Of a stretch of 41,365 nt of DNA, positions 15,715-36,863 are shown piece by piece. Within the stretch, counting starts at the first letter, position 1. Each line of letters opens with the position of its first letter. This DNA is from a virus. Taxonomy: Duplodnaviria; Caudoviricetes. The translations under genes were made by a program, and so were the position numbers. The stretch spans positions 1-41,365 of IMG/VR virus record IMGVR_UViG_3300025598_000072, one strand, 5' to 3'. The notes beneath the pieces were generated by a model that was not told where the DNA came from, made no database searches, and was given only the letters and a program-made list of their open reading frames with translations.

Positions 15715-15715
15715 T

Positions 15716-16885: not shown

Positions 16886-17247
16886 TTAATAAAAAAGTAT
16901 ATCCATTGAGGTACTTAGCACCTATAGAGCAAAAACCAGAAGACCCAGGAACTCCGCCTCCACCACCGCCTCCACCACCTCCAGGTGGAAGTGGATGTAA
17001 ATATCAAGTAGGGCATCTGATAAAAAATAAAAGAACAGGCGCAGTTGGGGAAATAATAGAAGTTGATGATCAATGTCGATATAAAATACGAGAGCTAACA
17101 TATGATGATATTATGGACATTAAAGATGGTTTAAAAATAACAGTAGATGATGTTCCTATTTCAGATCGTGATTCAATCTTAATACCTGTAGAAGAATCGA
17201 GATTTAAAGAATTGTTAAATAAATTAATTAAAGGAGGAACGTTATGA
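16882..17247 (+). CDS. Polyproline linker + SH3/KOW-like small protein
   Basis: P10 run, YQVGHLIKNKRTGAVGEIIEV; ATGA coupling at both ends. Confidence 0.7.
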   Translation: MINKKVYPLRYLAPIEQKPEDPGTPPPPPPPPPPGGSGCKYQVGHLIKNKRTGAVGEIIEVDDQCRYKIRELTYDDIMDIKDGLKITVDDVPISDRDSILIPVEESRFKELLNKLIKGGTL

Positions 17248-21048: not shown

Positions 21049-21285
21049 GTGAATCTCTGCAACATAAAAAACAATAAACAAGCAATCATTGAATCTGTAC
21101 ACGGCGAACAAGCACAACAACTACAAGAAATCGGGTTCGTTCCGGGAGCTAGAGTAACTGTTATAGCTCGAGCACCATTTAATGGCCCTATAGCTGTCCG
21201 TGTTGATAACTCTACATTTGCTCTGAGAATCGAAGAAGCTGAACAAATAAATATTCATAATCATGAAGATCTCTCAACTACTTAA
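21049..21285 (+). CDS. feoA: FeoA-family protein
   Basis: LQEIGFVPGARVTVIARAPFNGPIAVRVDNSTFALRIEEAEQI is the FeoA signature; GTG start. Confidence 0.85.
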   Translation: MNLCNIKNNKQAIIESVHGEQAQQLQEIGFVPGARVTVIARAPFNGPIAVRVDNSTFALRIEEAEQINIHNHEDLSTT

Positions 21286-22545: not shown

Positions 22546-23106
22546 ATGGAATATTATATAGGAAAAAGTAAAATTACTTACGGCTTATTTAGCTATGGAT
22601 GTGAAAATATCTTAATTAAAGAAGCAGGGGAAGGAAAAAATTTGACTATAGGAAATTTTTGTTCTATTGCTCCCCCATTAACAGTATTTTTAGGAGCTGA
22701 ACATAGATCAGATTGGATTACGACATATCCATTTGGACATATTCATGAATCAGAATTAGGAACAGAACGTTTTATAGGTCACCCACATAGTAAAGGAAAT
22801 GTAATTATAGGTCATGATGTATGGATAGGATACGATGTCACTATTATGAGTGGCGTTAGCATAGGCGATGGCGCAATTATCGGATCTAAAAGTTTAGTGA
22901 CTAAAGATGTCTTACCCTATCAAATCGTAGGAGGAAACCCTGCTAGAACTATACGAAATAGATTTGGCGAAGATATTATAAAACTATTATTAAAATTAAA
23001 ATGGTGGGACTTGCCTATCGAAGAAATTAAAAAAATTAAAAATATATTGAGCAATACTCCCTCTGTCGAAATCATTACCGATCTGATAAAACAATATAGA
23101 AATTAA
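22546..23106 (+). CDS. CatB/Vat-like hexapeptide-repeat O-acetyltransferase
   Basis: IGNFCSIA, TTYPF, IGHDVWIG, IGDGAIIG, VTKDV, VGGNPA, LKWWD. Confidence 0.88.
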   Translation: MEYYIGKSKITYGLFSYGCENILIKEAGEGKNLTIGNFCSIAPPLTVFLGAEHRSDWITTYPFGHIHESELGTERFIGHPHSKGNVIIGHDVWIGYDVTIMSGVSIGDGAIIGSKSLVTKDVLPYQIVGGNPARTIRNRFGEDIIKLLLKLKWWDLPIEEIKKIKNILSNTPSVEIITDLIKQYRN

Positions 23107-24017
23107 TTCGAACTAATAACAGGATCCGTGACTACCATTTGAGGCCCTACATTGGTATATCTAATCATGAAATTACCACTATGTAAATCTATGGTATGGT
23201 TTAAACGAACAATTAATTGAAACGCTTGTACTAACTTACGATCACGTATATTACTATAATCACCCCGGCGAACTGCTTGAGATAACACTTTCACTAACTC
23301 AGTCCAAATACTATAACTATGATGATCCGTAGGCAAATCAATAGGCGTGATAAAAATACGATTGGCAAAACTGGCAAATAAATCTGGATGAATATGCGGT
23401 ACAGCTTCATACGCATCATACAATCTTTCCATGGTATAGGCAAATCGTATGCCTTTACTGGTTTTAAAAGAATCAGCTACATAAATCCTGGGCAAATAGG
23501 GATTGTTACTCATTAACGGCTGTATGGCACGTACATACTGATAATAGGCATTACTGGTAGGATCAGTGGGCTTCCGCTCAACTTTGACTATTAATGCAGG
23601 ATCACTACTATGCTCAAATACTACAGCTTCTACTCCATCACCGATATTGACTCCTAACGGTAAACGGTCTAACCAAGCTTGCTCCGCTGCTTCAGATCTG
23701 TTACGAGATAAACGCTGCAAAAACGATGGCTTGGCAGCGGCAGGCTGCTGCGTTTGTATAATGTCATCTCGATCTTCATCTAATCTATAACGCCCTACTC
23801 GATAGGTGTTCTTGGTACCCTTCACTGTCTGCCCTGTAACTAAAGCACGGCTAGCTGCTTTAGAATCAACTCCCTTTCTTGCAGCCCACGCTTCTAAATC
23901 CATTACTACATACTGCTTATGCTTTTTGCTTAAACGAGAAGTATTGTTAGGATCACATACTTGTATGAGATACCCATTATGATCTCGATCAATAATCTTA
24001 AACTCATATATGCGCAT
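23103..24017 (-). CDS. Protein kinase-like fold protein
   Basis: IGDGVEAVVF, IVKVE, LPRIY, YTMERL, DLHSGNFM, VTDP; ATAAATA 24025-24031. Confidence 0.75.
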   Translation of the reverse strand: MRIYEFKIIDRDHNGYLIQVCDPNNTSRLSKKHKQYVVMDLEAWAARKGVDSKAASRALVTGQTVKGTKNTYRVGRYRLDEDRDDIIQTQQPAAAKPSFLQRLSRNRSEAAEQAWLDRLPLGVNIGDGVEAVVFEHSSDPALIVKVERKPTDPTSNAYYQYVRAIQPLMSNNPYLPRIYVADSFKTSKGIRFAYTMERLYDAYEAVPHIHPDLFASFANRIFITPIDLPTDHHSYSIWTELVKVLSQAVRRGDYSNIRDRKLVQAFQLIVRLNHTIDLHSGNFMIRYTNVGPQMVVTDPVISSN

Positions 24018-24086
24018 AATTGAGTATTTATTAAAAACCCAAGGTCTATACTAACCCTAAAAAATTACTACGCAAAATTTTTAAAC

Positions 24087-24365
24087 CTAGAAAATAATAT
24101 CATTGTCAACAAAATATCCCTCAATGATATTACACACTAACTGCGGATGACAATGCACATACTCACTACGTACCGTGAATCTATCCTTTAATATGCTTAA
24201 TATCCTACTCTCATGTAATCGATCAGGTATACTATACGTTTTTAAAAAATAACATTGAGGATTGGCGGTCCTATATGCTCGAAGCCTATTGTCAGGATTG
24301 CCCGTAATACCTAACTTACAACGGTGCGGCTTGTCTGGATCTACCATGATGTAATAGTAAAGCAT
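24087..24365 (-). CDS. GIY-YIG-like (T5orf172/MUG113) protein
   Basis: YYYIM...CKLGITGNPDNRLRAYRTANP...E...SEY; likely start 24365. Confidence 0.7.
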   Translation of the reverse strand: MLYYYIMVDPDKPHRCKLGITGNPDNRLRAYRTANPQCYFLKTYSIPDRLHESRILSILKDRFTVRSEYVHCHPQLVCNIIEGYFVDNDIIF

Positions 24366-24621
24366 ATGTTTATTTACTGTGAGGGGCATAGTACCCTAAA
24401 AATCTGCGCTGCAAAAAATAAAAGGTCTGGAGATCTCGGCCCCTGGTGATTTTTAACCCCATGGTGGGAAAAATCGCATGCCGAAAATTTTTTTAAATGC
24501 AAGCTTTTTATTTTATATGCCCCCCACTATATTGCTTGCAAAAGTTTTAAAAGCATGCTTAAGCATGCTTATTTTTTACACGCGCTGTAACACATGCTGT
24601 TACGCATAGCAAGCAAAATAA

Positions 24622-24646
24622 AATAGGGGGACGCAGCCCCCCTATT
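24622..24646. other. Hairpin AATAGGGGG-ACGCAGC-CCCCCTATT containing GGGAC
   Basis: 9-bp perfect stem near the left edge of the depleted zone. Confidence 0.75.
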
Positions 24647-24755
24647 GCATGCACGCTACACACACGCACTGCTTGCATATTGCAGTACACTGTGCTAGCG
24701 CATGCAGCGCACTAGCATATTGTATGCACATTGTACAATTAAATTTAAGTAATAT

Positions 24756-24834
24756 AACTTTGCATAACTTAACAAAACTATGCTTGCATTAAGTGTGCTA
24801 TATGCTAGCATTAGCAACGTAGCAATAACGCTAC
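24756..24834 (+). promoter_or_regulatory. Early promoter cassette copy 1
   Basis: AACTTTGCATAACTTAACAAAA-TTGCAT-16-TAGCAT (TGn extended)-GTAGC aataac GCTAC hairpin. Confidence 0.8.
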
Positions 24835-24855
24835 ATAACACACAGCAGTAACAGT

Positions 24856-25203
24856 ATGCAAACGCAACAACAAGCAGCAACGCAAGCACAAACGCAAACA
24901 AAGCGCAAGTACACTAAGCGCAAACAGCAGTTGCGTTTAGTTACTAGTGCTGCTACTACAGCAGCAGCGCAAGCAGCAGCAAACGCTACTAACAATGCTA
25001 CAGCAAAGCGCAACAGCGCATTGCACACGCAGCGTATGCTTAACTTTGCAACAGCGCAAAACGCAACGCAAATTAACAAAGCATTGTATACTAGCAAAGT
25101 GCGTTATTTGCAAGCATGTATTGCACATAACACAGCAATGCAGCAGTTGCAAGCGCAAATTACTGCACACTTGCTTAAAGTAGCAGTAGTATTACAGTAT
25201 TAA
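24856..25203 (+). CDS. Early protein lacking D/E/G/P/W (115 aa, basic)
   Basis: Framed by promoter cassette and terminator. Confidence 0.65.
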   Translation: MQTQQQAATQAQTQTKRKYTKRKQQLRLVTSAATTAAAQAAANATNNATAKRNSALHTQRMLNFATAQNATQINKALYTSKVRYLQACIAHNTAMQQLQAQITAHLLKVAVVLQY

Positions 25204-25240
25204 AATAAAGCGCACACAGTAACTACAACACTATACAGTT

Positions 25241-25274
25241 GCACACGCTATGCAAGTAGCGTGTGCTTTTTTTT
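25241..25274 (+). terminator. Rho-independent terminator
   Basis: GCACACGCTA-TGCAAG-TAGCGTGTGC-T8. Confidence 0.85.
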
Positions 25275-25311
25275 GCGCATAACAAACACAGCAGCGCACG
25301 CAGCGCACGCA

Positions 25312-25334
25312 GTATAGAGGGACGTTTAAACTAT
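25312..25334 (+). repeat. GTATAGAGGGACGTTTAAACTAT copy 1 (copy 2 at 26258-26280)
   Basis: Exact 23-bp repeat after each terminator. Confidence 0.9.
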
Positions 25335-25506
25335 ATGCGTTGTAGTTTTAAGTAGCAAGTTACACACAGCAGCGCACGCAGCGCACGCGCTGCACAGGGA
25401 CGCAGCGTCCCAGTTTTGTGCGCTATAAAACTTGTATAGTTTTTGTATGTATAAAAAAATGTGTATGTATAACGTCCCTGTGCTAACGTGTGCAGCGCGT
25501 ATAAAA

Positions 25507-25584
25507 AACTTTGCATAACTTAACAAAAAAACGCTTGTATTACTTGCGCGTTATGCTAAACTAAAAAACGTAGCAGTACGCTAC
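25507..25584 (+). promoter_or_regulatory. Early promoter cassette copy 2
   Basis: Same architecture: TTGTAT...TGcTAAACT, GTAGC/GCTAC hairpin. Confidence 0.8.
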
Positions 25585-25605
25585 GCAACACAAAAAGCAC
25601 AGCAT

Positions 25606-26172
25606 ATGCAACAACAGCAACAACAAGTAGCGCAGCAAGTAGCAGCGCTATTAGCAAACACAAGCGTAACTTTTGCTTGTGTACAGTACACAACGCAAGT
25701 AGCAACAGCAGCAGCGCATAAGCACGTAAACATACAAAAGCACACAGTTGCTAACGTGCAATTGTTTGCAAACATTAACGCTGCTACAAGCGTATTTGCT
25801 AACGCTGTAAAGCGTAATGCACAGCAACATGCTAACTGCGCAGCAGCAGTTGCAAACTTTACAGCACAGCAAAATTACTTTATGCACACTAACTGCTACA
25901 GCATTGTGCAGCATAAAAACAACAGTAATTTGTACTTGTATTGCATTTACAACAATGCGCGTAGTTACTACACAATTAACAACGTGCGTGCTACTAAGCA
26001 GCAAGTTGCACAATACTTAACAGCAAGCGCAGCACAGCAGTTACTTAACGCTAGCAACGTAACGCACAACAAAACGCACAACGTAACGCATAGCGTTGTA
26101 GTGCGTACAATTGCTTTGCACAACATACAGCGCATTAAAGCAAAGCGTAAACAGTTACAGTTTGCAGCGTAA
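25606..26172 (+). CDS. Early protein lacking D/E/G/P/W (188 aa)
   Basis: Framed by promoter and terminator; globular-looking hydrophobic pattern (YSIVQHK, LYLYCIY, VRTIAL). Confidence 0.75.
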   Translation: MQQQQQQVAQQVAALLANTSVTFACVQYTTQVATAAAHKHVNIQKHTVANVQLFANINAATSVFANAVKRNAQQHANCAAAVANFTAQQNYFMHTNCYSIVQHKNNSNLYLYCIYNNARSYYTINNVRATKQQVAQYLTASAAQQLLNASNVTHNKTHNVTHSVVVRTIALHNIQRIKAKRKQLQFAA

Positions 26173-26193
26173 CTAAGCGCACAGCAACACGCA

Positions 26194-26226
26194 GCACACG
26201 CTATGCAAATAGCGTGTGTTTTTTTT
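26194..26226 (+). terminator. Rho-independent terminator (near copy of 25241)
   Basis: GCACACGCTA-TGCAAA-TAGCGTGTGT-T7. Confidence 0.85.
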
Positions 26227-26398
26227 GCGCGTAACAAACACAAACACAATAGCAGTTGTATAGAGGGACGTTTAAACTATGCGCGTTGTAGTTTTACAAG
26301 TAGCAGCAGCGTGCGCTGTACAGAGGGACGCAGCGTGTATGTATAATGTTAACGCCCCCCTCTATTGTGCGCGTGCGTGCTGTTACAGCGTGTGTTTA

Positions 26399-26477
26399 AA
26401 CTTTGCAAAACTTAACAAAAATGTGCTTGCGTTAGTTGTGCATTGTGCTATTATTAGCAACGTAGCAATAACGCTAC
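26399..26477 (+). promoter_or_regulatory. Early promoter cassette copy 3
   Basis: TTGCGT-16-TATTAT with TG extension; 5' hairpin. Confidence 0.8.
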
Positions 26478-26496
26478 AAACACAAAGTAACTTAAA

Positions 26497-26676
26497 ATGC
26501 ATATTGCAACTAATATTTACTTAAAAAATACAGCGCAAGTAACGCAACAACAAATTGCGTTGTTTAACGCGCTGCAACAGCAAGTTAACGCACTTGTAGC
26601 ACAGTACGCTAATATTATTAGCGACGACGCTGTAAGCGCGTACATTTGCGACGACGCTAACGTAGCGTTGTATTAA
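26497..26676 (+). CDS. 59-aa protein missed by ORF track; paralog of 27236-27427
   Basis: MHIATNIYLK...QQQIALFNALQQQVNALVAQY...YICDDANVALY. Confidence 0.7.
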   Translation: MHIATNIYLKNTAQVTQQQIALFNALQQQVNALVAQYANIISDDAVSAYICDDANVALY

Positions 26677-26737
26677 CTTGTAACAGCGTGCACAGTAGCG
26701 TATACTGTGCACGCACTTAACAAAAAGTAGTAATATT

Positions 26738-26971
26738 ATGCATACACTGGAAGTAAATTATCCGCTTGCGTTGTATATTAACAACGCAGACATTGATAGC
26801 GACATTATTGCTGCTGTAGCTGTAGCTAGCAACGGCAGTGGCGCGGGTTTTGGCATACGCGACATTACGTTTACGTTTAACACTGCTGCTGCTGCTAATG
26901 CTGCTGCTGCGCGTGCTAAAACTGTGCATAACAGCATAACGTGCAGCGTGTACGCTAACAGCTACGCTTAA
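26738..26971 (+). CDS. Hypothetical protein (GSGAGFGIRD)
   Basis: ORF downstream of cassette 3; GR steps mostly confined to D/E/G codons. Confidence 0.65.
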   Translation: MHTLEVNYPLALYINNADIDSDIIAAVAVASNGSGAGFGIRDITFTFNTAAAANAAAARAKTVHNSITCSVYANSYA

Positions 26972-27132
26972 ACGCTAGCAGCTAGTTTGCACATGCAAGC
27001 TAGCTGCTGTTACACAGCGGGGCATTAACGTGCGTGCGTAGTTGTTTATGCTACGCACGCACAGCAACTTAAGCAAAGTATAGAGGGGCCGCGTCCCTCT
27101 AAAATACTTTGCATTTTTTTGCTGTGTAGTTT

Positions 27133-27211
27133 AACTTTGCATAACTTAACAAAAATGTGCTTGCGTTAGTTGTGCATTGTGCTATTATTAGCAACGTAGC
27201 AATAACGCTAC
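27133..27211 (+). promoter_or_regulatory. Early promoter cassette copy 4
   Basis: Nearly identical to copy 3. Confidence 0.8.
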
Positions 27212-27235
27212 GCATTACTACAAAGTAGTTACACA

Positions 27236-27427
27236 ATGCAAATACAACTTACAATTGCGCTTAACAACAAAAACAGCAAAAAAGTTGCAATGCAGCAACT
27301 TATGCTATTTAAAAAACTAGAGCAGTATGCTAATATGCTTGTAGAGCAGCATACTGACGCTGTTAACAGCAAAGTGCAAATAGTTAAAGTACACGTATAC
27401 GACGACGCTAATAATTTAATAGTTTAA
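27236..27427 (+). CDS. 63-aa protein; paralog of 26497-26676
   Basis: QQLMLFKKLEQYANMLVEQH...VYDDANN. Confidence 0.7.
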   Translation: MQIQLTIALNNKNSKKVAMQQLMLFKKLEQYANMLVEQHTDAVNSKVQIVKVHVYDDANNLIV

Positions 27428-27489
27428 CTTGCACATATGCGTGCGTAGTGTTATGCTACGCACGCACTTTAACACTAAGGACTTGTAAC

Positions 27490-27711
27490 ATGAGCATGCA
27501 CGCAGATTACACAGACGACGCTACGCGCAACGTGTACGGGCACAAGCATACTAGCGGAGCAGCACGCATTGACGCGCTGCTTATAGACGGCGCTACAGGC
27601 GCTGTGTTGGAGCAGGAGCGCACTAGCTGGCAGGAGCACTTGCGGCACTTGCGCGAAGTACACGGCGTTAACGTAGTTGTTACTGCGCAGGGCGTTTACT
27701 TTATTGGCTAA
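27490..27711 (+). CDS. Hypothetical protein
   Basis: AAGGA RBS, ATG 27490 after conserved hairpin. Confidence 0.65.
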   Translation: MSMHADYTDDATRNVYGHKHTSGAARIDALLIDGATGAVLEQERTSWQEHLRHLREVHGVNVVVTAQGVYFIG

Positions 27712-27815
27712 AACTTAAAATGCACGCTGCAGAGCAGCAATCTCTGCAGTGGGGCATTTTCAAAATAGGCCCTGATAAGGCTTGACATTGCCGCTGCGGT
27801 ATGTTAAAGTATGCT

Positions 27816-27923
27816 ATGAATTTTAGATACATCCTGCCTTGGGCGTTTGTGTTTACGCTGTTGTTGACAGGGCATTTTACCGCTGCTATTGTTATCGCAG
27901 CGTTGATTGTGATTTGCAGTTAA
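27816..27923 (+). CDS. 35-aa hydrophobic micropeptide (leaderless)
   Basis: TTGACA(27782)-17-TAAAGT then ATG 5 nt later; MNFRYILPWAFVFTLLLTGHFTAAIVIAALIVICS. Confidence 0.5.
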   Translation: MNFRYILPWAFVFTLLLTGHFTAAIVIAALIVICS

Positions 27924-27975
27924 ACAGTTTTCGTTGAGTGCTTTGTGTTGTGCTTGCGGACTTAGTGTCCGCTTT

Positions 27976-28013
27976 GGGTGGCAAGGTCCTGGACTTTAGC
28001 CACCCTTTTTTTT
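27976..28013 (+). terminator. Rho-independent terminator
   Basis: GGGTGGC...GCCACCC-T8. Confidence 0.75.
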
Positions 28014-28413
28014 GACCGGAACTTCTGGAAAACTCTTCTTCATAAGAGTTAGAGAGATCGCTGCAGCGAAACTGGGACTTTAAACCTCAGATCAATCCAA
28101 ACTTGATCCAATCTATGATTCACAAGATTTTCCAAAAGTTAAGGCCCCAAACCCTCAAAAGAAACCTCTTAGGAATCATAGGCTTAAACATAAGCTCAAT
28201 GGAAAATTCAACAGTATCATAGAGCTAAGTTCAACTAGATGGGTATAAGAGTTCCTGGGTTATAGCTAGCAGACTGGGGCTTTATACCCAAACATGCTAT
28301 GGGGTATAAGATCTAAGATCTTGATCTTAGTGACCTCTAGCGGGGTATTTGAATAGGTAAGGAAGCGGGCGTCCCTAAGGCACCCGCTGAGGTAGTATTA
28401 GTGTGTAGTTAGT

Positions 28414-28554
28414 TTAGAACAGATGTTGGAACAGTTTGTACAGGACTAAAGCAATCGCTGCTGTACAAGCCAAGTCCAAATAGACGTCGAACGCCTGGTC
28501 CGCTTTTTCCGTACGCTGTTCATAGTAGTCTTCAGTTTCACATTCGTCATACAT
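28414..28554 (-). CDS. 46-aa acidic protein with C-terminal TM segment
   Basis: AGGAG RBS; - strand TTGACA-17-TATAAG promoter near 28590-28618. Confidence 0.6.
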   Translation of the reverse strand: MYDECETEDYYEQRTEKADQAFDVYLDLACTAAIALVLYKLFQHLF

Positions 28555-28803
28555 CGGTTGCTCCTGCTGTGTTGTTAAACATAATATACTTATACGCTCA
28601 ACAAAGTTTAATGTCAACCAAACAATTTTGTTAAGTTTCGTTAAAACAGGTTGTGTTTATCTATCGCTGTACATATATTAGACGAGTACGCAGCAGCGAT
28701 AGCGTGTGGTCAAGTTGTGTTATGCATAGTTGTGTTGTGTTATCGCCCGCGCTATCGCTGTGTGCGTATACAGTAATTAACTTAATCTAAGGAGTCAAGT
28801 GTT

Positions 28804-28890
28804 ATGTCACGTCCACGTATGAAAGCAGGCACTACCGCACGCGAGCGTGCAAAGCGTGCTGCACGACTGCACCGTCGCGTTCGACGTTAA
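28804..28890 (+). CDS. 28-aa Arg-rich micropeptide
   Basis: TAAGGAG RBS; MSRPRMKAGTTARERAKRAARLHRRVRR. Confidence 0.6.
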   Translation: MSRPRMKAGTTARERAKRAARLHRRVRR

Positions 28891-28989
28891 CGGTGTACTG
28901 ATTGCATAGACGCAAGTAGCGCAGCGGGACGCTGCGCTACTTTTTCCTAAGTTGCGGCCCCGGATGTAAACGCTTACATTCGCTAGATA

Positions 28990-29066
28990 AACTTTGCGTA
29001 ACTTAACAAAACTATACTTGTGTTAAGTGTGCTGTATGCTATTATTAGCAACGTAGCAGTTGCTAC
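28990..29066 (+). promoter_or_regulatory. Early promoter cassette copy 5
   Basis: AACTTTGCGTAACTTAACAAAA...TGcTATTAT...GTAGC agtt GCTAC. Confidence 0.8.
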
Positions 29067-29089
29067 ATAACACAGCATAGGACACAACA

Positions 29090-29347
29090 ATGTTTAACAA
29101 TATTACAGATGTGCAAAAAGAGCTTATAGCAAGCGCAGCAACGCAAAACAACGGGCTTGTTGCAGTTATTTTTGCATTAGCGTTTGCAGCAGGTGACTTT
29201 GATACTGTGTATTACATTTATAGCAGCAAGGAACTGTTTACGCTTGCAAACTTTGCAAACGACGAAGAAATTTACGCAAAAGCAGCAGCACTAGGCGACG
29301 CGCTGCTTACGTTTGCGCGTGCAGAAGCTGAGCACACACTAAACTAA
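29090..29347 (+). CDS. Hypothetical protein
   Basis: AGGA RBS after cassette 5. Confidence 0.7.
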   Translation: MFNNITDVQKELIASAATQNNGLVAVIFALAFAAGDFDTVYYIYSSKELFTLANFANDEEIYAKAAALGDALLTFARAEAEHTLN

Positions 29348-29411
29348 CAATTACACGCAGCGTGCGTAGTGTTATCTACGCACGTTGCATTGCACAATAA
29401 GGAAGCACAAC

Positions 29412-29651
29412 ATGAACACATTGGCTGCTAGTATGACAACTGCTGCTAAATGCAAAAAGATATTGCGCACAGCGAAACTGATGCGCAAGTGGGAACAGCG
29501 TGCTACTAATGCTAGGCTGACACTAGCAGCACTTGAGCAGCAAGTAGCACACGGCAAACTAAAACGCACAGCACAGGCACGAACAGCAAACATAGCGCGT
29601 ACTGCTGAAATTAAAGCCTTGGAATACAAAAAACGCTTACTTGAGCACTGA
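29412..29651 (+). CDS. Basic helical hypothetical protein
   Basis: AAGGA RBS, ATG 29412. Confidence 0.65.
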   Translation: MNTLAASMTTAAKCKKILRTAKLMRKWEQRATNARLTLAALEQQVAHGKLKRTAQARTANIARTAEIKALEYKKRLLEH

Positions 29652-29717
29652 GGCAGAAATTGTTTAGCGGGACGCGGCCCCTCTACTGTAAACTGTTAGC
29701 AGTTTTTTGCATTTTAA

Positions 29718-29796
29718 AACTTTACTTAACTTAACAAAAAAACACTTGCACTACTTGCGCTGTATGCTACTATTAACAACGTAGCAATAACGCTAC
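29718..29796 (+). promoter_or_regulatory. Early promoter cassette copy 6
   Basis: TTGCAC-16-TACTAT with TG extension; 5' hairpin. Confidence 0.8.
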
Positions 29797-29819
29797 GCAC
29801 AACTTAAAAGTTAACAACT

Positions 29820-30125
29820 ATGCTTGCTGTTATTAATGTTGAAAGCGATGACAATGAAACTACTACGCAGTATGCGTGCAACTTTACTGTAGAATGCGAC
29901 GGTAGCAGCATTTGGGCTGACACAACAGGGCGCAAAGTACATGTTACTGCTATTAGTGTACACGAATGCAATGGCTACAAAAGCATTTATGTAACACACG
30001 ACAGCAACTGGCACATTTATACTGACAAGGGCTTTGTTGCTGCTATTAGCAACGCATTGGGCTACGCTGTAGACTTTACAGAGCAGGGTATGCAGGAAGA
30101 CAACTTTGCAAGTATGGAAGCGTAA
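29820..30125 (+). CDS. Hypothetical protein (WHIYTDKGF, FTEQGMQ)
   Basis: ORF directly after cassette 6. Confidence 0.75.
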   Translation: MLAVINVESDDNETTTQYACNFTVECDGSSIWADTTGRKVHVTAISVHECNGYKSIYVTHDSNWHIYTDKGFVAAISNALGYAVDFTEQGMQEDNFASMEA

Positions 30126-30189
30126 CTAGCACGCAGCGCACAGTAGAGGGACTACTGTGCGCTTTTATGCACATATAGGACACTAACAA

Positions 30190-30393
30190 ATGCATACTTG
30201 CACAGGACGCACAATGCGTTATCATTGCTTGGGCATCGACGGAATGAATCCAGATCGTACAGGCGATTGGGTCCGTTACGCAGACTATCTCTCATTGTTG
30301 CAGCAATTAGACGAAATTCGTATAACGCTGCTCCAGCTTCGAACACCTATAGCGGGGTATCATGATGTATCGTCCAAGTCAAGCAACTATTGA
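30190..30393 (+). CDS. Hypothetical protein (GDWVRYADY)
   Basis: AGGA RBS. Confidence 0.55.
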   Translation: MHTCTGRTMRYHCLGIDGMNPDRTGDWVRYADYLSLLQQLDEIRITLLQLRTPIAGYHDVSSKSSNY

Positions 30394-30664
30394 CGCTATC
30401 CTCAAAAAGGAACTGACTGAAGCTGACATTGCACGCTATCGGCGTGCCTCACGTCTATACAAGATCTCAGGCGTGATTGCTATCACAATCTGGGCAGGTT
30501 GGATTGTGACTGGCTTCTTACACTACAACAAAGCCAACGACGTCTTGTTTGAAGGCCTGTGGGCATCATTCTTCTTTTGGTGTTACAGCATTTGGTTCAG
30601 TGACTGCGATATGCATCGTATGGACTATGTAGATCGCTTGGATCGAGCAAAACGATCTAAGTAA
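30362..30664 (+). CDS. Membrane protein (2 TM)
   Basis: Two hydrophobic segments. Confidence 0.6.
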   Translation: MMYRPSQATIDAILKKELTEADIARYRRASRLYKISGVIAITIWAGWIVTGFLHYNKANDVLFEGLWASFFFWCYSIWFSDCDMHRMDYVDRLDRAKRSK

Positions 30665-30871
30665 TGATTAGTTGAGGTTCACTTAATTTTTGCGGGGCTG
30701 CGTCCCGCAATACTGCAGAGGTTATCTGCAGTATTCCAGATCTTTCCAGACTCTCTTCACTGTTTCAAACTCTTTTAGCCATATAGTCCCGGATCTGCAG
30801 CGGGGTATCGTTGACTGCTTAACATAAGACTGTTAGTATTAAACATAAGACTACTGAACAGGAGTTTGTTG

Positions 30872-31015
30872 ATGAACTGTTTGTTGGCTATAACTGCAAT
30901 AGCAGTTAGTGTATGGGTTGTGGCGTTGTTGTATGCAAGCAACGAACTAGCGCGTGATGAGCGTATCCGTAAGATGTATCAGGAAGGAATTTTTAAAAAT
31001 AGTTCCAAAAAGTAG
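30872..31015 (+). CDS. 47-aa membrane-anchored peptide missed by ORF track
   Basis: TTGACT-17-TAGTAT promoter, AGGAG RBS, MNCLLAITAIAVSVWVVALLYA... Confidence 0.55.
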   Translation: MNCLLAITAIAVSVWVVALLYASNELARDERIRKMYQEGIFKNSSKK

Positions 31016-31076
31016 TTGACACGCACCGGTCTGTTTGCTATAACTAAATTGTTGATAACATAACACAAGGTGATTT

Positions 31077-31373
31077 ATGCCGCGCGTAGGATATAACTTA
31101 GCAACTGCAGATCTCAACGATGAATTTGTAGAACGCTTAAAGAAGCCCATTCGGCGAGTGTGGGACATGATCGGCTACGATGTGCTGCGAGATGCCGAAA
31201 CGATAGGCGAGCGCATCGATAACGAATCCGCTGTTGAATGCTGCATTGATGGTGAACGCTTGGCTTGTGAAGCACGAGACAGTCATGCTAACGCTGCACT
31301 TGATCTAATGCTTACTGAGTATGGCTATCCAAAAGTTCTGCATTTCCTTTCCAAAAAAATACGTTTAGTCTAA
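31077..31373 (+). CDS. Hypothetical protein
   Basis: Own promoter TTGACA(31016)-17-TATAAC; AAGGTG RBS. Confidence 0.7.
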   Translation: MPRVGYNLATADLNDEFVERLKKPIRRVWDMIGYDVLRDAETIGERIDNESAVECCIDGERLACEARDSHANAALDLMLTEYGYPKVLHFLSKKIRLV

Positions 31374-31724
31374 AGAACTCTCGTACCCTACAGTGGGACT
31401 TTGAGCAGTGAAACTCTTTGGTCCCACTGTACCCTGAGTATAACCTCTTTATGGTTTCTGAATGGTATCTACGATGATCGTATGGGTGGACAGGGACTTT
31501 AAAATATTTCTTGCGCATCTGTTAGTTTTATTGTAGACTTTATGTAAGATCAAAAGGCGACAGCCGCTCTGAGGGAGGGGGGCTTAACCCGAAGTTGTTC
31601 TGACTGTCTGGGACTCAATCTAACTTGTTTTTTTTTGAGGTGATTCAAGGTCTGCAACCGTATTCTCTAACCGCTGCAGACCCTGTGTCGATGCTTTGAA
31701 GTCCTTATGACCTCAAGTCATAGA

Positions 31725-31979
31725 CTAATAGAAGAAAGCGTGTACACGCGCACGTAGTTCAAGCTGTGAGGGCGTATACTCGATATCATGCCAAATGCCC
31801 GTAGCAGGATCGCAAGCACGACGGATCTCGTGTGCGTAGATGTCGCCCGTTTCGGTGTAGGCGCCCTCTACTTCTGCCATGCGGAGATTGCCTTTACGGT
31901 TGTCCATCATAGTGCCATACCAACCATTGTGCTGTTGAATGCGCCAGCCCTTCTTAATGTCGTTTGTGCGGATTGCCAT
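31725..31979 (-). CDS. Hypothetical protein (SH3-like pattern)
   Basis: AAGGAG RBS; - strand TTGCAT-17-TACTAT promoter. Confidence 0.7.
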   Translation of the reverse strand: MAIRTNDIKKGWRIQQHNGWYGTMMDNRKGNLRMAEVEGAYTETGDIYAHEIRRACDPATGIWHDIEYTPSQLELRARVHAFFY

Positions 31980-32221
31980 AACAGTTGCTCCTTATTGCTA
32001 ACCAACGTGTATATAGTACTACCTAGATTTTCCAAATGCAACCACTTAGATTGCCCACATGACCTATCTAGAGGTTTACAAAGTCATATGCCTCTAAACC
32101 TGCAGCGGGGCATTTGACGGGTACTAGGCCCCGGGTACAACATCAATCTAATGTATAAAACCTATAGCGGGGTATTTGCGGATAGTGCGTATACTGTGTG
32201 ATCAGTATACGCACCAATACA

Positions 32222-32638
32222 TTAAGCAGTTAGCTGGTAAGGCTTCTTCCAGTTGCCTACTTGAATGCTGCAGTAGTAAGCGGTGTCAAAGTAATCAATC
32301 TCGCTGCGAGTATTGTCATACCATCCCGCACTCTTAAGAGCTTGATGCAGCTCTTCTAATGCTAGACGAGCAACACCATCATAGTGTTCATGAATCCAAT
32401 AGACGTTAACATCTTCATAGCCACTAGTGTTAGGACGAAAGCCATGCAGCTGATAACGCTGATTATGCCCACAGACTTCATTGCTGTTGCCAAGAAAGTC
32501 AATAGGTCCCGAAGTCAACTTCAACTTGATCGTGCTGTGATTGCCAACACTGAGCGAACCCTTGAGTCCATAACGCTTCAACACAGGCTTGACTGCTGCT
32601 GCGATGATTGCTTTCTTTTCGGCGTTCATGTAAGCCAT
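32222..32638 (-). CDS. Hypothetical protein (WYDNTRSEIDYFDTAYY)
   Basis: AGGAG RBS, 138 aa. Confidence 0.75.
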   Translation of the reverse strand: MAYMNAEKKAIIAAAVKPVLKRYGLKGSLSVGNHSTIKLKLTSGPIDFLGNSNEVCGHNQRYQLHGFRPNTSGYEDVNVYWIHEHYDGVARLALEELHQALKSAGWYDNTRSEIDYFDTAYYCSIQVGNWKKPYQLTA

Positions 32639-32694
32639 ACAATGCTCCTAGCATTTGGGCGACAGCACCATTGCTGCCGCCCGTGTGTATTATA

Positions 32695-32931
32695 CTACTC
32701 TTCCCAGCCGTGGTCAATTTCCGATGTGGTATCAAACGTCCACATCAGATTGCTACGGAAGTTGAGCCCTGTGATGCGCTCACGCTCACGATCCTGCAAT
32801 TCAATGTCTGCAGCATCTTCTTCAAGATCCGTGAGCTCTTCGCTATCAAAGAGTGCATCCTGCTCATCGGGCAGTTCAATGTCCATGCGTTCGTCTGCAT
32901 CTAAGACATCATCAAGTATATAACGGCTCAT
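32695..32931 (-). CDS. Highly acidic small protein
   Basis: AAGGAG RBS; 27 of 78 residues D/E. Confidence 0.7.
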   Translation of the reverse strand: MSRYILDDVLDADERMDIELPDEQDALFDSEELTDLEEDAADIELQDRERERITGLNFRSNLMWTFDTTSEIDHGWEE

Positions 32932-32976
32932 TGCAAGTGCTCCTTTGCACTAACTGTCTACAGTTCTAATTATACA

Positions 32977-33126
32977 CTAAACAGCCAACAGCGCAACCAT
33001 TTTATACAAAAAAAGTACTATAAGCACAGCGCCCCAAATGCCTAGTACGGTTAAACCCAATACTAGCATAAGCACTAGCTTATATGCTAGATCAAACCAA
33101 TCTATTGACGTAATACGAGTTTTCAT
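32977..33126 (-). CDS. Small membrane protein
   Basis: Long hydrophobic stretch; likely start 33126. Confidence 0.5.
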   Translation of the reverse strand: MKTRITSIDWFDLAYKLVLMLVLGLTVLGIWGAVLIVLFLYKMVALLAV

Positions 33127-33171
33127 ATATAGTAGGGCAGTTTTAAGTGTTGCCCAGCACCGGAGCATGCC

Positions 33172-33387
33172 TTAAGCCGCCAAGCCCATGATCAGCTGAA
33201 CAAACGAGTCTTCAACACGGTTGTTGCGTACAATGCCCGCGTAAGTAGCACGCTGGCTAATAGTCTTGCGGAAACCACCGCTGGTCTGACCCGTGCCACT
33301 CAACATACGCGCTACAGCGCGAATGCTCTTGAACGTACGAACCTGGCCCGAAGGAAAAGTAACATCAATCTTGATAGCCTTACTCAT
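33172..33387 (-). CDS. Small DNA-binding-like protein (NUMOD1-like)
   Basis: GQVRTFKSIRAVARMLSG; AGGAG RBS; TTGACA-17-TAAACT promoter. Confidence 0.6.
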   Translation of the reverse strand: MSKAIKIDVTFPSGQVRTFKSIRAVARMLSGTGQTSGGFRKTISQRATYAGIVRNNRVEDSFVQLIMGLAA

Positions 33388-33579
33388 GTCATTTGCTCCT
33401 GTTTGTGATGACACTTACTTACTCAACACAAGTAGTTTACATGCTCTACTAAACATTGTCAACTACTTTTTACCAACAAATTTTGGTAGGCCCGGAGGGT
33501 ACTGACCCCTCTTCTATTGGTTAAAAGCCAATTGCTTCACCTTAAAGCTTCGAGCCCACATGAAACTAGTGTATACTAC

Positions 33580-33747
33580 TTAATACGCGTCTGCAACCTC
33601 GCGGTCCACTCGCCAGTTATAGCGCAATTCCCGCTCATGATCCTTGGCACTCTTGTGCGTCTTAGGACGATTAAACTGGTTGAGATTGCGTGCTACAGGA
33701 TTGCTCTTGCGGCGACGGTTCTTGTCCAAATAGTTGTGATCATTCAC
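33580..33747 (-). CDS. 55-aa basic protein missed by ORF track
   Basis: GTGA-coupled; RRRKSNPVARNLNQFNRPKTHKSAKDHER. Confidence 0.5.
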   Translation of the reverse strand: MNDHNYLDKNRRRKSNPVARNLNQFNRPKTHKSAKDHERELRYNWRVDREVADAY

Positions 33748-33857
33748 TGCGCACTCTCCAACTCTGCAATTTGATCTTCAATACGTTGCCATTCATCGAG
33801 ATCAGCTGCATGCTGCTGTGCAAGACGCAGCTCTCGAATATAGTCTTGCTTGGTCAT
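33744..33857 (-). CDS. 37-aa helical peptide missed by ORF track
   Basis: TTGACT-16-TATAAT immediately upstream; MTKQDYIRELRLAQQ... Confidence 0.5.
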   Translation of the reverse strand: MTKQDYIRELRLAQQHAADLDEWQRIEDQIAELESAQ

Positions 33858-33887
33858 GATCATATTATAACAGGTTTTACCAACTAG

Positions 33888-34229
33888 TCAACCACAATCT
33901 GAGACAAATTCTGCATTGGGCGCCGCTAACGTTTCTACGAACCAAGTGCCGCCCGTGCCCCGAGTATGCTCTTGCGCATAGTCTTCTGCAGACTCTACAC
34001 TAGGAAACGGACCCGCAAAGTTAAAGCCCTTGACAGGATCACCATGCATTACAACAAGATCCTCATTATCATCCTGTCCGTCAACATTGGGCGCCCACAT
34101 CATAACCACAAACCATGCAGCGGCTGTGCAGTACTCCCCGCCATAGTCGTAGGCTGCTTCCTCTTGCTCAAAGGGCCCGATAAACTCGAATCCACTGGAA
34201 AGATCACCGAACATTACAACAAACTGCAT
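33888..34229 (-). CDS. Acidic protein made of two internal repeats
   Basis: VVMFGD...GFEFIGPF...WFV..WAPN / VVMHGD...GFNFAGPF...WFV..AAPN; GAGGAG RBS. Confidence 0.75.
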   Translation of the reverse strand: MQFVVMFGDLSSGFEFIGPFEQEEAAYDYGGEYCTAAAWFVVMMWAPNVDGQDDNEDLVVMHGDPVKGFNFAGPFPSVESAEDYAQEHTRGTGGTWFVETLAAPNAEFVSDCG

Positions 34230-34290
34230 ACACAGTCTCCTCTTGCTATGCGTCTAGTATAGCAGGCGTTACTAAAAGGTCAAGTATACT

Positions 34291-34515
34291 TCAACTGTCC
34301 TGTTGCGCCATATCTACTAGGCTAAACTCTGCAGCCTCCGCAAACGTCTTGCAAGAGTGCAGTAAGTTGTAGAATGCCTGACGCTCCTCTGCGCTCAACT
34401 GTGCTGCAAAGTTCTCGCCAGTGCTTTCTACTTCAGACATTGCATTCAACAGCTGATCTAGTGCCAGCTGAGTGTTTTGGCACATGCAATAACTCATGTT
34501 AGGATAGTTACTCAC
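34291..34515 (-). CDS. Hypothetical protein (NMSYCMCQNT)
   Basis: GGAG RBS, GTG start, own promoter. Confidence 0.7.
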   Translation of the reverse strand: MSNYPNMSYCMCQNTQLALDQLLNAMSEVESTGENFAAQLSAEERQAFYNLLHSCKTFAEAAEFSLVDMAQQDS

Positions 34516-34566
34516 TAGGTCTACTCCACGTTCTAACTATGCATATAGTATAGCAGGTTTTACCAA

Positions 34567-34842
34567 TTAGTCAACCAGTTCTCGTACACGAAACTCACGT
34601 ATAATGCCGCCCTGTGCAGATCCCCCCACAGGCAGACATCGTTTAGCACGCTCTGCATCCGCTTGCGTTGCATAAACTACTACAGGTTGCGTTGCATAAA
34701 CTACTACAGGTTGCGTTGCATAAACTACTACAGGTTGCGTTGCATAAACTACTACAGGTTGCGTTGCATAAACTACTACAGGATCCCAACGACTGCCCGC
34801 AGTCTTGAACTCGATCAGTCGCTCTAACACCCAATTAGTCAT
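34567..34842 (-). CDS. Hypothetical protein with PVVVYATQ x5
   Basis: Coupled to upstream ORF. Confidence 0.6.
   Translation of the reverse strand: MTNWVLERLIEFKTAGSRWDPVVVYATQPVVVYATQPVVVYATQPVVVYATQPVVVYATQADAERAKRCLPVGGSAQGGIIREFRVRELVD
34663..34782. repeat. Perfect 24-bp tandem repeat x5
   Basis: TTGCGTTGCATAAACTACTACAGG. Confidence 0.95.
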
Positions 34843-35185
34843 TGGTCAATCCCTCAGGAAGATAGCCCGTAAGTCTCTCAATAGGTAGATCTTTGATCAA
34901 TTCTTCAATGGCTGTATAATCTTGGTCTTCTACATCACGACGTATTTGATCCAATACACGATCAATTACTGCTTGATTAGGTGCATTTAACGCTACCTTT
35001 TGCAAACGGAAAAAGTAGTCCTTCTCAGGATTGATCTCAGCAAACTCAACAAAGCATTCTTCATGCGTGATCTCATCGTGGCAACTGAAGCCATCGTCAC
35101 CGGTGTGATCAATACGATAGACAGCGTCTGTTTGCACAAAGAACGCGGAGTCTTGTGCAATATCAAACAATTCGTCGTCGGTCAC
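34835..35185 (-). CDS. Acidic hypothetical protein
   Basis: AGGAG RBS; TTGACC-17-TACAAT promoter. Confidence 0.7.
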   Translation of the reverse strand: MTDDELFDIAQDSAFFVQTDAVYRIDHTGDDGFSCHDEITHEECFVEFAEINPEKDYFFRLQKVALNAPNQAVIDRVLDQIRRDVEDQDYTAIEELIKDLPIERLTGYLPEGLTND

Positions 35186-35547
35186 AGTATTTGCTCCTGT
35201 TGTCTAACTGTGTGCGTATATTGTAGCGTGCAGCAGAATCAAGGTCAAGTGCTTTGAACCGGGACTGGACTGAAATAAATCACTAGGCGGCCCCACTCTT
35301 AACGCTGTACACTGATCTGCCCTAATAGAACTGCAGTGGGTATTAGAGTTCTTGTGGGACTCTGTTCTATTGAGGTTGACATGGTCAAAGAATAGTGCTA
35401 TACTGATCGGCTATTTTCTGTCAAAAACAGGTCAAAAACTGAGAAAAAACTGGTGGATTTTTCTCAGATCGGTGGGACTTTGACTGCATTTTGGCCTCAA
35501 TTTTTTGGCAAGATTGAGATTGACCTAGTGACGGATGAGAGGTTATG

Positions 35548-35689
35548 CTCAAATGCTCCATCCACCGTTCTCCGCCATTCTCTCCATCATTAGGTCATTG
35601 TTTCTATCAGAATTTCTACTCAAATGCTCCATCCACCGTTCTCCGCCATTCTCTCCATCATTAGGTCATTGTTCTTGTCAGAATTTCTA
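35548..35689. repeat. 71-bp near-perfect tandem duplication (non-coding)
   Basis: CTCAAATGCTCCATCCACCGTTCTCCGCC... at 35548 and 35619. Confidence 0.9.
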
Positions 35690-35750
35690 CACACGGGGAG
35701 TGTGTATAGATTCAGAGTTTTATCGCTGTTAGTCGATGTTGAGTCTACAG

Positions 35751-35984
35751 TTACTCAAAATCGCCAACAGAACGAGTCACACTTGAACGGAGTACGCGAG
35801 CCAAGAGTATGATTGCAGCAGTATGCAAGGTATCGAGTTGTTGACTAGTCCAATGATAGTAGTCGACCACAGACCAGTTCCATAGTTGGCTAACCAGTAG
35901 TGCAGAGAACATTATAGCTACCAGTGTTAGAGCTGTGCGGAAGACTAGTTCGTTCCAGGAGGGTAATTTATCTGTGTTTAACAT
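35751..35984 (-). CDS. Membrane protein (2 TM)
   Basis: AAGGA RBS; TTGACT-17-TACAAT promoter. Confidence 0.65.
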   Translation of the reverse strand: MLNTDKLPSWNELVFRTALTLVAIMFSALLVSQLWNWSVVDYYHWTSQQLDTLHTAAIILLARVLRSSVTRSVGDFE

Positions 35985-36084
35985 AGTGTTTGAGTCCTTG
36001 TCGGTCTAACTGTGTGTAGCTAGTATTGTACAAGGTTTAGTGTAGGGAGTCAAGTGTGTATAAGATCTATTATATAGCGGGGTA

Positions 36085-36438
36085 TTAGGGTATTTTGCGT
36101 AGATGTATTCTCAAGAAGGTTTCGCCGTTATATTGTTGTTGTATCACGGCTATTTCTGCGGAGTCATTGTATGCTGTGTAGACCAGTATCAGATCTTCTT
36201 CTGTATCGGGGAATTTAAAGTTTTTATAGTATATGCTTTTTTCCCAATCTGGAGTTGTGGGGAACAGTTTGGGATTTATTTTTAATAGATGAGCGGGAGT
36301 TATTTCGGGTGTGTTCACGTATCTAGTATAGACATCGGAGTATTCGTCTAAAGTGCCTTCGATTTGTTCTAGTATATAGTCGTTAGGCCAGTATTTAGGG
36401 TTTATAGTATTTTCTTTTAGTATTTGATTAATTTTCAT
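36085..36438 (-). CDS. MKIxQ family paralog 9
   Basis: MKINQILKEN, YWPNDYILEQIE, PDWEKSIY, LILVY. Confidence 0.8.
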   Translation of the reverse strand: MKINQILKENTINPKYWPNDYILEQIEGTLDEYSDVYTRYVNTPEITPAHLLKINPKLFPTTPDWEKSIYYKNFKFPDTEEDLILVYTAYNDSAEIAVIQQQYNGETFLRIHLRKIP

Positions 36439-36863
36439 ATGATTTTATCTTCTTTTGCTTTTTCTATTTGTTTGTTGTACCAATCATAACTAGAGAACGC
36501 CATATAGATACTCTGTATATGCCTATAAGTAGAGGGAATACCATCGTTCCATCTAGTGATTATAGCCAGACTTGAATCGTCTATGCCCGGATATACCAAT
36601 AGGAGACGGTTGACGATGCCAAGACTATGGTAAGCGGATCTATCCCAATCTGGAGTTGGGTTAAATTTGAAAATCTTAGTGTATTTTTCCAATTTCCCCG
36701 CCACTAGATTTATAACTTCTTGATCGGATTTAAGGGCATGGTAGTTTTTCGATTTATTTTCGAAATCTTCAAATTCTATAACTTCGATCTGCTCGAGTGT
36801 ATATTGATTAGGAGTATAATCAGGGTCTATAGTATTTTCTTTAAGTATTTGGGAGATTTTCAT
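36435..36863 (-). CDS. MKIxQ family paralog 8
   Basis: True start MKISQILKEN at 36863; PDWDRSAY, LLLVYPG. Confidence 0.8.
   Translation of the reverse strand: MKISQILKENTIDPDYTPNQYTLEQIEVIEFEDFENKSKNYHALKSDQEVINLVAGKLEKYTKIFKFNPTPDWDRSAYHSLGIVNRLLLVYPGIDDSSLAIITRWNDGIPSTYRHIQSIYMAFSSYDWYNKQIEKAKEDKII

Follow-up and report, generated by a model that had tools for sequence, protein, structure and literature searches.

The 41,365-nucleotide (nt) stretch IMGVR_UViG_3300025598_000072 (the window), a fragment of a jumbo phage genome that CheckV rates as about 11% complete, contains a core at positions 24525-27479 from which the dinucleotide steps GA, GG, TC and CC have been almost entirely removed. 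A G followed by A or G is called a GR step here, and GA, GG, TC and CC are counted together so that the count is strand-symmetric. The purge is real and extreme, it acts on DNA rather than on protein, and it is paid for in the amino acid composition of the encoded proteins. Very probably the core avoids the phage's own modification of guanine, whatever agent reads the DNA. A narrower form of this explanation, in which the core is immediate-early DNA that stays free of self-modification and is read by the sigma70 RNA polymerase of the host, is the one that we favor, with appreciably less assurance.

Between 24540 and 27450, 71 of these steps are observed against 611 expected from composition. 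The values of rho are 0.08 for GA/TC and 0.16 for GG/CC, compared with about 1.05-1.12 for both in 1-24500. Two long runs are free of all four steps, one of 676 nt (24642-25317) and one of 786 nt (25478-26263); the longest clean run over 1000 shuffles of 24540-27450 is 51 nt. Shorter clean runs lie at 26362-26623 (262 nt), 27099-27320 (222 nt) and 29683-29841 (159 nt). The initial annotation, made by reading the letters, had placed the long runs at 24643-25316 and 25479-26262, correct to within 1 nt, and its sharp left edge near 24.5 kb also holds, with 88 steps in 24001-24500 and 15 in the following 500 nt. Its account of the right side is only partly borne out. The bias does lapse rightwards, but the course is not monotonic: the purge fades at about 27.75-28.9 kb (28001-28500 is unpurged, with 116 steps per 500 nt), resumes at 29.0-30.1 kb and stops near 30.15 kb. 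Thus the proposed limit of about 30.2 kb for the scarcity of TC and CC is close to the mark, but these steps do not stay rare all the way to it. A further point, absent from the initial annotation, is that 49 of the 71 residual steps of 24540-27450 are non-coding, the majority belonging to a repeated (A)GGGAC/GTCCC motif. Three of five residual islands tested fold better than shuffles, and some copies of the motif lie in hairpins. The elements of the purged region are as follows.

24525..27479, GR/YC-purged core (steps counted in 24540-27450, as above)
28987..30150, second and weaker purged block, with few GR steps beyond those that the amino acids require
24622..24646, residual GR island, a GGGGGAC...CCCCC hairpin
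25317, 25397-25411, 25475, 26263, 26323, 26355, 27081-27103 and 29669, related (A)GGGAC/GTCCC motifs
25241..25275, + strand, GR-free hairpin with a T run, terminator-like (fold z -3.1); a near copy at about 26194-26226

An 88-nt promoter cassette (repeat family D1) occurs six times among the small genes of this region. The cassettes and open reading frames (ORFs), all on the + strand, are listed in order, with lengths in amino acids (aa).

24747..24834, promoter cassette 1
24856..25203, 115-aa ORF, no D/E/G/P/W; GR steps 0, where its amino acid sequence predicts 28
25498..25585, promoter cassette 2
25606..26172, 188-aa ORF, no D/E/G/P/W; GR steps 0, where its amino acid sequence predicts 39
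26390..26477, promoter cassette 3
26497..26676, 59-aa ORF, whose only GR steps are four Asp codons
26738..26971, 77-aa ORF, 13 GR steps, minimum possible 11
27124..27211, promoter cassette 4
27236..27427, 63-aa ORF, 5 GR steps, minimum possible 5
27490..27711, 73-aa ORF, 25 GR steps, minimum 20
28981..29068, promoter cassette 5
29090..29347, 85-aa ORF, 16 GR steps, minimum 14
29412..29651, 79-aa ORF, 20 GR steps, minimum 10
29709..29796, promoter cassette 6
29820..30125, 101-aa ORF, the last purged gene, 30 GR steps, minimum 26

The first two proteins lack five amino acids that make up 19-34% of the residues encoded by this phage's core genes. That the rule acts on DNA and not on protein follows from the absence of GR steps in two genes for which protein sequence alone would give 28 and 39, and from the switching of the avoided motif among homologues described below; synonymous sites and spacers also obey the rule. 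The cassettes, which from their consensus matches would act as sigma70-type promoters, have -35 boxes TTGCAT, TTGTAT, TTGCGT, TTGTGT and TTGCAC (TTGYRY) and not TTGACA, together with TG-extended -10 boxes. Promoters at the opposite end of the likely terminal repeat, discussed below, keep TTGAC. A homologue of the 115-aa ORF was seen by eye in L004 and L029, and the ORF has no PHROG or Pfam match. The 188-aa protein has 389 homologues and a confidently predicted fold (pLDDT 91.8). Its best structural match, a weak one, is YaeO (Z 6.5, root-mean-square deviation 2.1, 69 aligned residues), so that a likeness to Sm/Hfq/WYL/Rof-like barrels may be a lead at most. Foldseek searches gave no match in the PDB and four uncharacterized phage proteins in BFVD; a search of the ESM Atlas gave nothing usable. 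Neither a nucleotide search with the core nor a tblastn search with the 188-aa protein found a match among 50,697 phage records.

The family of the 188-aa gene provides the clearest view of the rule. Among 61 distinct homologous genes (97 loci), 40 are purged of both GA and GG, a count biased upward because the search was seeded with purged sequences; three are purged of GG only, one mainly of GA/TC, and 17 are unpurged. At columns where unpurged homologues have D, E, G and P, the purged ones have N, Q/T, N and A, respectively, whereas the GG-only homologues keep Asp and lose just Gly and Pro. In G017, at least 1.6 kb around a gene of this family (32127-33753) contains no GG/CC at normal GA/TC. 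Two further sequences, L265 and L270, likewise hold deserts of GG/CC only, with normal GA/TC, around 188-aa family genes. The purged block of relatives is single and 1-8 kb long. In all four contigs that allow the comparison (G000, G003, G004 and G005), the block occupies the edge of the early region that is the same one with respect to the UvsW block, but the orientation of the core genes varies. In G012, a GR-free block at 14165-14728 surrounds a different gene, 500 bp past an unpurged copy of the 188-aa gene. A search for some other depleted di- or trinucleotide in G007, G009, G011, G015, Phosso, Vibrio phage 2.275.O and CBB found nothing comparable.

An error in the sequence would be the most trivial explanation, and the region is indeed rich in short repeats. 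The initial annotation had named assembly as the point on which its observation could fail. The sequence is supported by the data: a second IMG/VR contig is 100% identical across 18.3 kb, contigs from the runs X2, X8 and X11 show zero differing letters, and 20 public freshwater metagenome runs contain 88-99% of the window's words, although several of them may be the source of the window and are hence not independent. No RNA run is among those listed as containing the sequence. With these runs, 40 diverged homologues under the same rule, compliant synonymous sites and spacers, and a confident fold, the probability that the purge reflects assembly artefact, low complexity or amino-acid bias is negligible.

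The window encodes UvsX, UvsY, UvsW, a primase and a helicase. The best matches of UvsW, at 49-52% identity, are in Phosso, 2.275.O, the PA5oct/Paride group and Atu_ph07, and relatives that carry the 188-aa gene are as long as 327 and 363 kb. Judged by these genes, the window comes from a jumbo phage of the PA5oct/Rak2-like kind. The purged core lies at the left end of a distinct region.

24140..35600, likely direct terminal repeat and early region of about 11 kb, marked by depth, GC content, small ORFs and sigma70-type promoters

Each end of this region can be placed only to within several hundred bases, the left one at about 23.8-24.5 kb and the right one at about 35.55-35.9 kb. The ratio of contig depth inside to outside about 24.1-35.6 kb is 1.86, 1.44, 1.95, 1.62, 1.80 and 1.62 in six runs; depth was taken from long Logan contigs and not from reads, seven runs could be scored, and X15, which gives only partial cover, was left unscored. 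GC content is 44% over 24.4-35.65 kb, compared with 34% and 37.5% in the flanks, and small genes and matches to sigma70-type promoters fill the same interval. It is likely that 24.1-35.6 kb is a terminal repeat of about 11 kb and that its left end and the beginning of the purge are at most a few hundred bases apart. The purge start is placed at the left end of the repeat because contig depth steps up 1.4-2.0-fold over this interval; the earlier suggestion that the purge lies near a genome terminus is thus supported in six of the seven scorable runs, with GC bias a possible contributor. Contig ends near the 188-aa gene were also considered as evidence of a terminus and were dropped, since the inspected ends start in promoter repeats. 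X15 carries, over window positions 26409-36471, a near-identical, high-depth copy of most of the repeat, in which the flanks and the first two genes are uncovered; this may represent a mosaic relative or filtered records. The likely repeat also contains a tRNA gene (33487-33557, - strand), the sole Rfam match, and a 24-nt tandem repeat of about five to six copies (34639-34806) inside an ORF at 34567-34842, of which one run has a form 96 nt shorter.

Candidate genes for guanine modification are found in relatives. One contig, G006, carries a purged block together with FolE, QueD, QueE and a 542-aa protein whose homologues in cultured phages are confined to 13 records, those of the PA5oct group, Phosso and 2.275.O. 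The 542-aa protein appears to be DpdA-like, on homology to TGT that is weak but consistent. It has an ESM feature match of 0.94 to a cluster with 17% PF01702, three of 36 homologues match the Pfam TGT family at E 0.0045-0.043, under the cut-off, and the family alignment has an invariant D-S-x-G, which we take to resemble the TGT catalytic motif. Its single-sequence fold is unusable (pLDDT 32). The DpdA-like gene is present in G006, G007, G027, PA5oct, Phosso and 2.275.O. In 2.275.O, QueF, YhhQ, QueC and FolE are encoded two genes away from it; FolE and QueE are within 7 kb of it in G006, and QueE is within 3 kb in Paride. In Phosso it has no deazaguanine genes as neighbors. Scans of 18 and 10 related contigs for Pfam TGT and QueC gave no credible match, and the 188-aa family was found in none of 11 long dpdA-like contigs. 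At G006 240355-248421 (L053), the DpdA-like gene is followed by 178-, 123- and 365-aa proteins with no Pfam family and, further along, by FolE, a PRTase, a GMP reductase-like protein, a HIT protein and QueE, with no QueC match; the genes of this locus may possibly make an undescribed deazaguanine end product.

Published work on such enzymes agrees with the avoided motif. PA5oct is listed with a deazaguanine system (PMC7824862), and its DNA resists five enzymes, from which the authors infer modified G in GA and/or GG (PMC12191111). DpdA proteins fall into families DpdA1-4 (PMC10516641). Because their target motifs vary, with GA and GGC modified by the CAjan enzyme (PMC7544227) and GA alone by that of iggy (PMC10484667), a switch between GR and GG among homologues is to be expected. 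CAjan (KP064094) was tried as a positive control for a desert on the kilobase scale and set aside, its longest clean run being 65 nt. At CAjan 53678-53737, 30 successive G/C positions contain no GR step, about 16 being expected, in a small gene of a small-ORF region.

If modified guanine hinders transcription by the host enzyme, GR steps should also be scarce where transcription of other early genes begins, and this prediction held. Over the first 17 nt past the -10 box, TTGAC promoters have a GR fraction of 0.30 in G027, 0.37 in G006, 0.20 in G008, 0.20 in G002, 0.18 in G012 and 0.20 in PA5oct, compared with 0.44-0.50 upstream; for the template strand alone it is 0.06-0.23 in those six genomes. 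In CBB, where neither FolE nor a DpdA-like protein was matched, the values are 0.49 after the box and 0.47 upstream, and in G009, a fragment of unknown pathway status, 0.48 and 0.52. Extended -10 motifs with no -35 box show no GR signal. Vinyl, ethynyl and phenyl 7-deazaguanines block the RNA polymerases of E. coli and B. subtilis in vitro, mainly at initiation (PMC4838386). PA5oct (MK797984) also has GR-free tracts of 105-217 nt at 239311-239459, 264998-265138, 267341-267557, 277085-277227 and 27594-27698; one is a tandem promoter, and the others look palindromic and non-coding.

It is thus possible to outline a mechanism. A predicted phage enzyme of the DpdA type would substitute a 7-deazaguanine derivative for G at GA and GG; relatives alone show the gene, and this phage would share the pathway. 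The immediate-early edge of the terminal repeat, presumably the end that enters the cell first, would have to stay unmodified so that the sigma70 RNA polymerase of the host could read it straight after entry. Avoidance is seen in two tiers. At ordinary early promoters only about 17 bp past the -10 box is purged, and chiefly the template strand is affected; at the likely terminus the purge takes in promoters (TTGC/TTGT for TTGA), spacers and whole genes. It would cost no protection from restriction, because the GR-containing sites of enzymes blocked by the modification are absent. A fuller version remains tentative: that a large clade of freshwater jumbo phages has recoded its first-entering end to a 15-amino-acid proteome free of its own deazaguanine, with the GGGAC/GTCCC islands, which alone could still be modified there, as positional marks for injection or expression.

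Several observations weigh against the interpretation just outlined. The 41-kb window, about 11% of the genome, contains no dpdA or que genes; QueC was found solely in 2.275.O, with no match in G006, G027 or PA5oct. The identity of the 542-aa protein is limited by an hhalign probability of 1.3% against CAjan DpdA and by the lack of any match in the PDB. A core on the kilobase scale is absent from five of the six genomes with the DpdA-like gene, where the longest GR-free runs are 44 nt in G007, 56 in G027, 54 in Phosso, 66 in 2.275.O and 217 in PA5oct (not at the repeat ends). Such an enzyme is therefore not sufficient for a core. G007 is complete and its 188-aa homologue is unpurged; G027 is 93% complete. 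Purged block and pathway occur together in G006 only, where the purge is weaker and the longest run is 141 nt. The motif assigned to PA5oct is imperfect, as the ApaLI site holds neither GA nor GG. The promoter effect is weak in G007 (0.46 after the box against 0.58 upstream) and absent in Phosso and 2.275.O, on just 6 and 5 promoters. Many promoters of one genome are repeats of each other, which makes their counts non-independent and the p-values overstated, and the negative control is essentially one genome, CBB, plus the fragment G009. Plain 7-deazaguanine is tolerated and elongation is not slowed in vitro (PMC4838386), so the polymerase alone does not obviously explain the purged coding sequence. 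T7-like pulling of the DNA by polymerase is argued against by core genes that are transcribed toward the sharp edge in G003, G004, G005 and G008. As to the terminus, the seventh scorable run, the mixed-strain X20, shows no step (depth ratio 1.09), and the GC step (42-47% versus 31-38%) coincides with the depth step, as a GC bias would have it.

The same modification could be avoided for another reader. If the core were kept unmodified so that nucleases of the END kind, which depend on modification, could not cut this first-entering DNA before its products inhibit them, the purging of whole genes and spacers would be accounted for even though elongation is unaffected in vitro. END nucleases target PA5oct and other phages with modified G, and the PA5oct inhibitor, gp52, is encoded inside the terminal repeat (PMC12191111). 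The 188-aa protein was accordingly tried as an anti-END homologue and rejected: hhalign gives a probability of 0.05% against gp52, and none of the relatives fetched has a gp52 homologue. The gp52 gene itself lies outside purged DNA (observed-to-expected ratio 1.02), and a nuclease leaves the depletion of about 17 bp past -10 boxes unexplained. A nuclease as reader is on the whole unlikely, but evasion of such nucleases is the main rival explanation for the coding purge, and the two readers are not mutually exclusive.

The remaining explanations fare less well. Avoidance of guanine modification is the best supported of the three drivers put forward initially, with the reservation that its support comes through relatives and that the window holds no dpdA. 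A host defence acting on unmodified GR/YC in injected DNA (restriction, phosphorothioate systems, DarT, protospacer adjacent motifs or a cytosine deaminase) would agree with the absence of GATC, CCGG and TCGA from the core and with the finding that only sites in the first-step region expose T5/BF23 to restriction (PMC10644984), and the G signal of the template strand may just as well reflect YC of the non-template strand, exposed in the transcription bubble. General avoidance of restriction sites is nevertheless contradicted by the sites that lack GR: the density of GCGC, TGCA, GCNGC and CGCG in the core exceeds that elsewhere by a factor of 6-19 (per kb, GCGC 13.8 versus 0.74 and GCWGC 16 versus 1.6), and among the restriction sites checked only those containing GR vanish. 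Damage or deamination of pyrimidines is likewise contradicted, since TT and CT occur at normal levels, the core has a raised GC content, and the changes from Glu to Gln and Pro to Ala are transversions and not deamination products. A single two-letter rule that is shared by tens of diverged phages and gives way cleanly to GG only is also hard to reconcile with host defence, which we consider improbable. Equally improbable is a role in DNA entry, packaging or duplication of the repeat, in which some phage or host protein would need unmodified DNA to bind or travel along and the GGGAC/GTCCC islands would be marked sites like the T5 injection-stop signal. The constant position of the core in four of four contigs whatever the gene orientation, the purging of non-coding DNA before the first promoter, the non-coding location of most residual steps and the GR-free palindromic, non-promoter tracts of PA5oct would all suit such a role; but the residual motifs vary between relatives, the genome-wide promoter-proximal depletion is left unexplained, and no protein partner has been identified.

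Avoidance of the phage's own modification, read by the host polymerase, may be compared with known systems. The avoided motif is the GR context that the enzymes of DpdA phages modify, and relatives of the present phage encode FolE, QueD, QueE and a DpdA-like protein. The available passages on DpdA phages describe protection from restriction and Cas9, and not motif-free zones or protein recoding (PMC7544227, PMC10484667, PMC10516641, PMC12191111). The core works like the first-step region of T5 and BF23, without general avoidance of restriction sites: T5/BF23 has a terminal repeat of about 10 kb and earliest genes transcribed by the host, and DNA motifs decide its survival (PMC10644984). T5, whose DNA is not hypermodified, avoids 4-6 bp sites of a host enzyme (PMC10644984); here, in contrast, the thing removed is a step of two letters that is likely the target of the phage's own modification; the cost is five amino acids, and other restriction sites are enriched. 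With PA5oct/Paride (Wroclawvirus) and the Rak2/CBB-like phages the present phage shares UvsW and, probably, a terminal repeat that shows as doubled coverage and has sigma70-type early genes. The repeats of CBB and PA5oct, 22 and 39 kb long, were found by doubled coverage and hold early genes (PMC5259590, PMC7318152), and PA5oct depends on host RNA polymerase, with early genes in its 39-kb repeat (PMC7318152). Unlike the present phage, no cultured member of these groups has the 188-aa gene, and none of those fetched has a kilobase-scale core (longest runs 217 nt in PA5oct and 58 nt in CBB). A literature search found nothing on GA/GG-free phage regions, subscription journals and supplements lying outside its coverage.

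Other genes of the window deserve mention. A family 2 glycosyltransferase directly 3' of UvsW (4192-4854, + strand) could bear on DNA hypermodification. At 12973-18293 (+ strand), a 913-aa double AAA ATPase is followed by weak matches to vWA and metallopeptidase domains, a MoxR-vWA-like layout. A FeoA-domain protein (21049-21285, + strand, E 3e-20) and a hexapeptide-repeat acetyltransferase like CatB/Vat (22546-23106, + strand, E about 1e-44, far under curated cut-offs) follow, and a PHROG match to a T7 gp0.7-like kinase (23103-24017, - strand, E 4e-8) lies just beyond the likely left terminus.

The new elements in this analysis are the depth evidence for a terminus, the natural experiment that a single gene family offers in GR and GG avoidance, and the test on promoters, in which a genome lacking the pathway served as control. 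If the explanation is correct, motif deserts would predict the target motifs of uncharacterized modifying enzymes, of which there are at least 7969 DpdA-like proteins, and the forbidden step, GR or GG, would reveal the specificity of each DpdA from sequence alone. The deserts would also mark, in metagenomic contigs, genome ends and the earliest genes, which probably serve host takeover or anti-defence. PA5oct and Paride are cultured, and their promoter-level signal makes the idea testable. The purged gene families are natural folded proteins on a reduced amino-acid alphabet. The finding bears on how a host enzyme starts transcription of heavily modified genomes, and it suggests that the cost of hypermodification can be large enough to leave entire proteins devoid of Asp, Glu, Gly, Pro and Trp.

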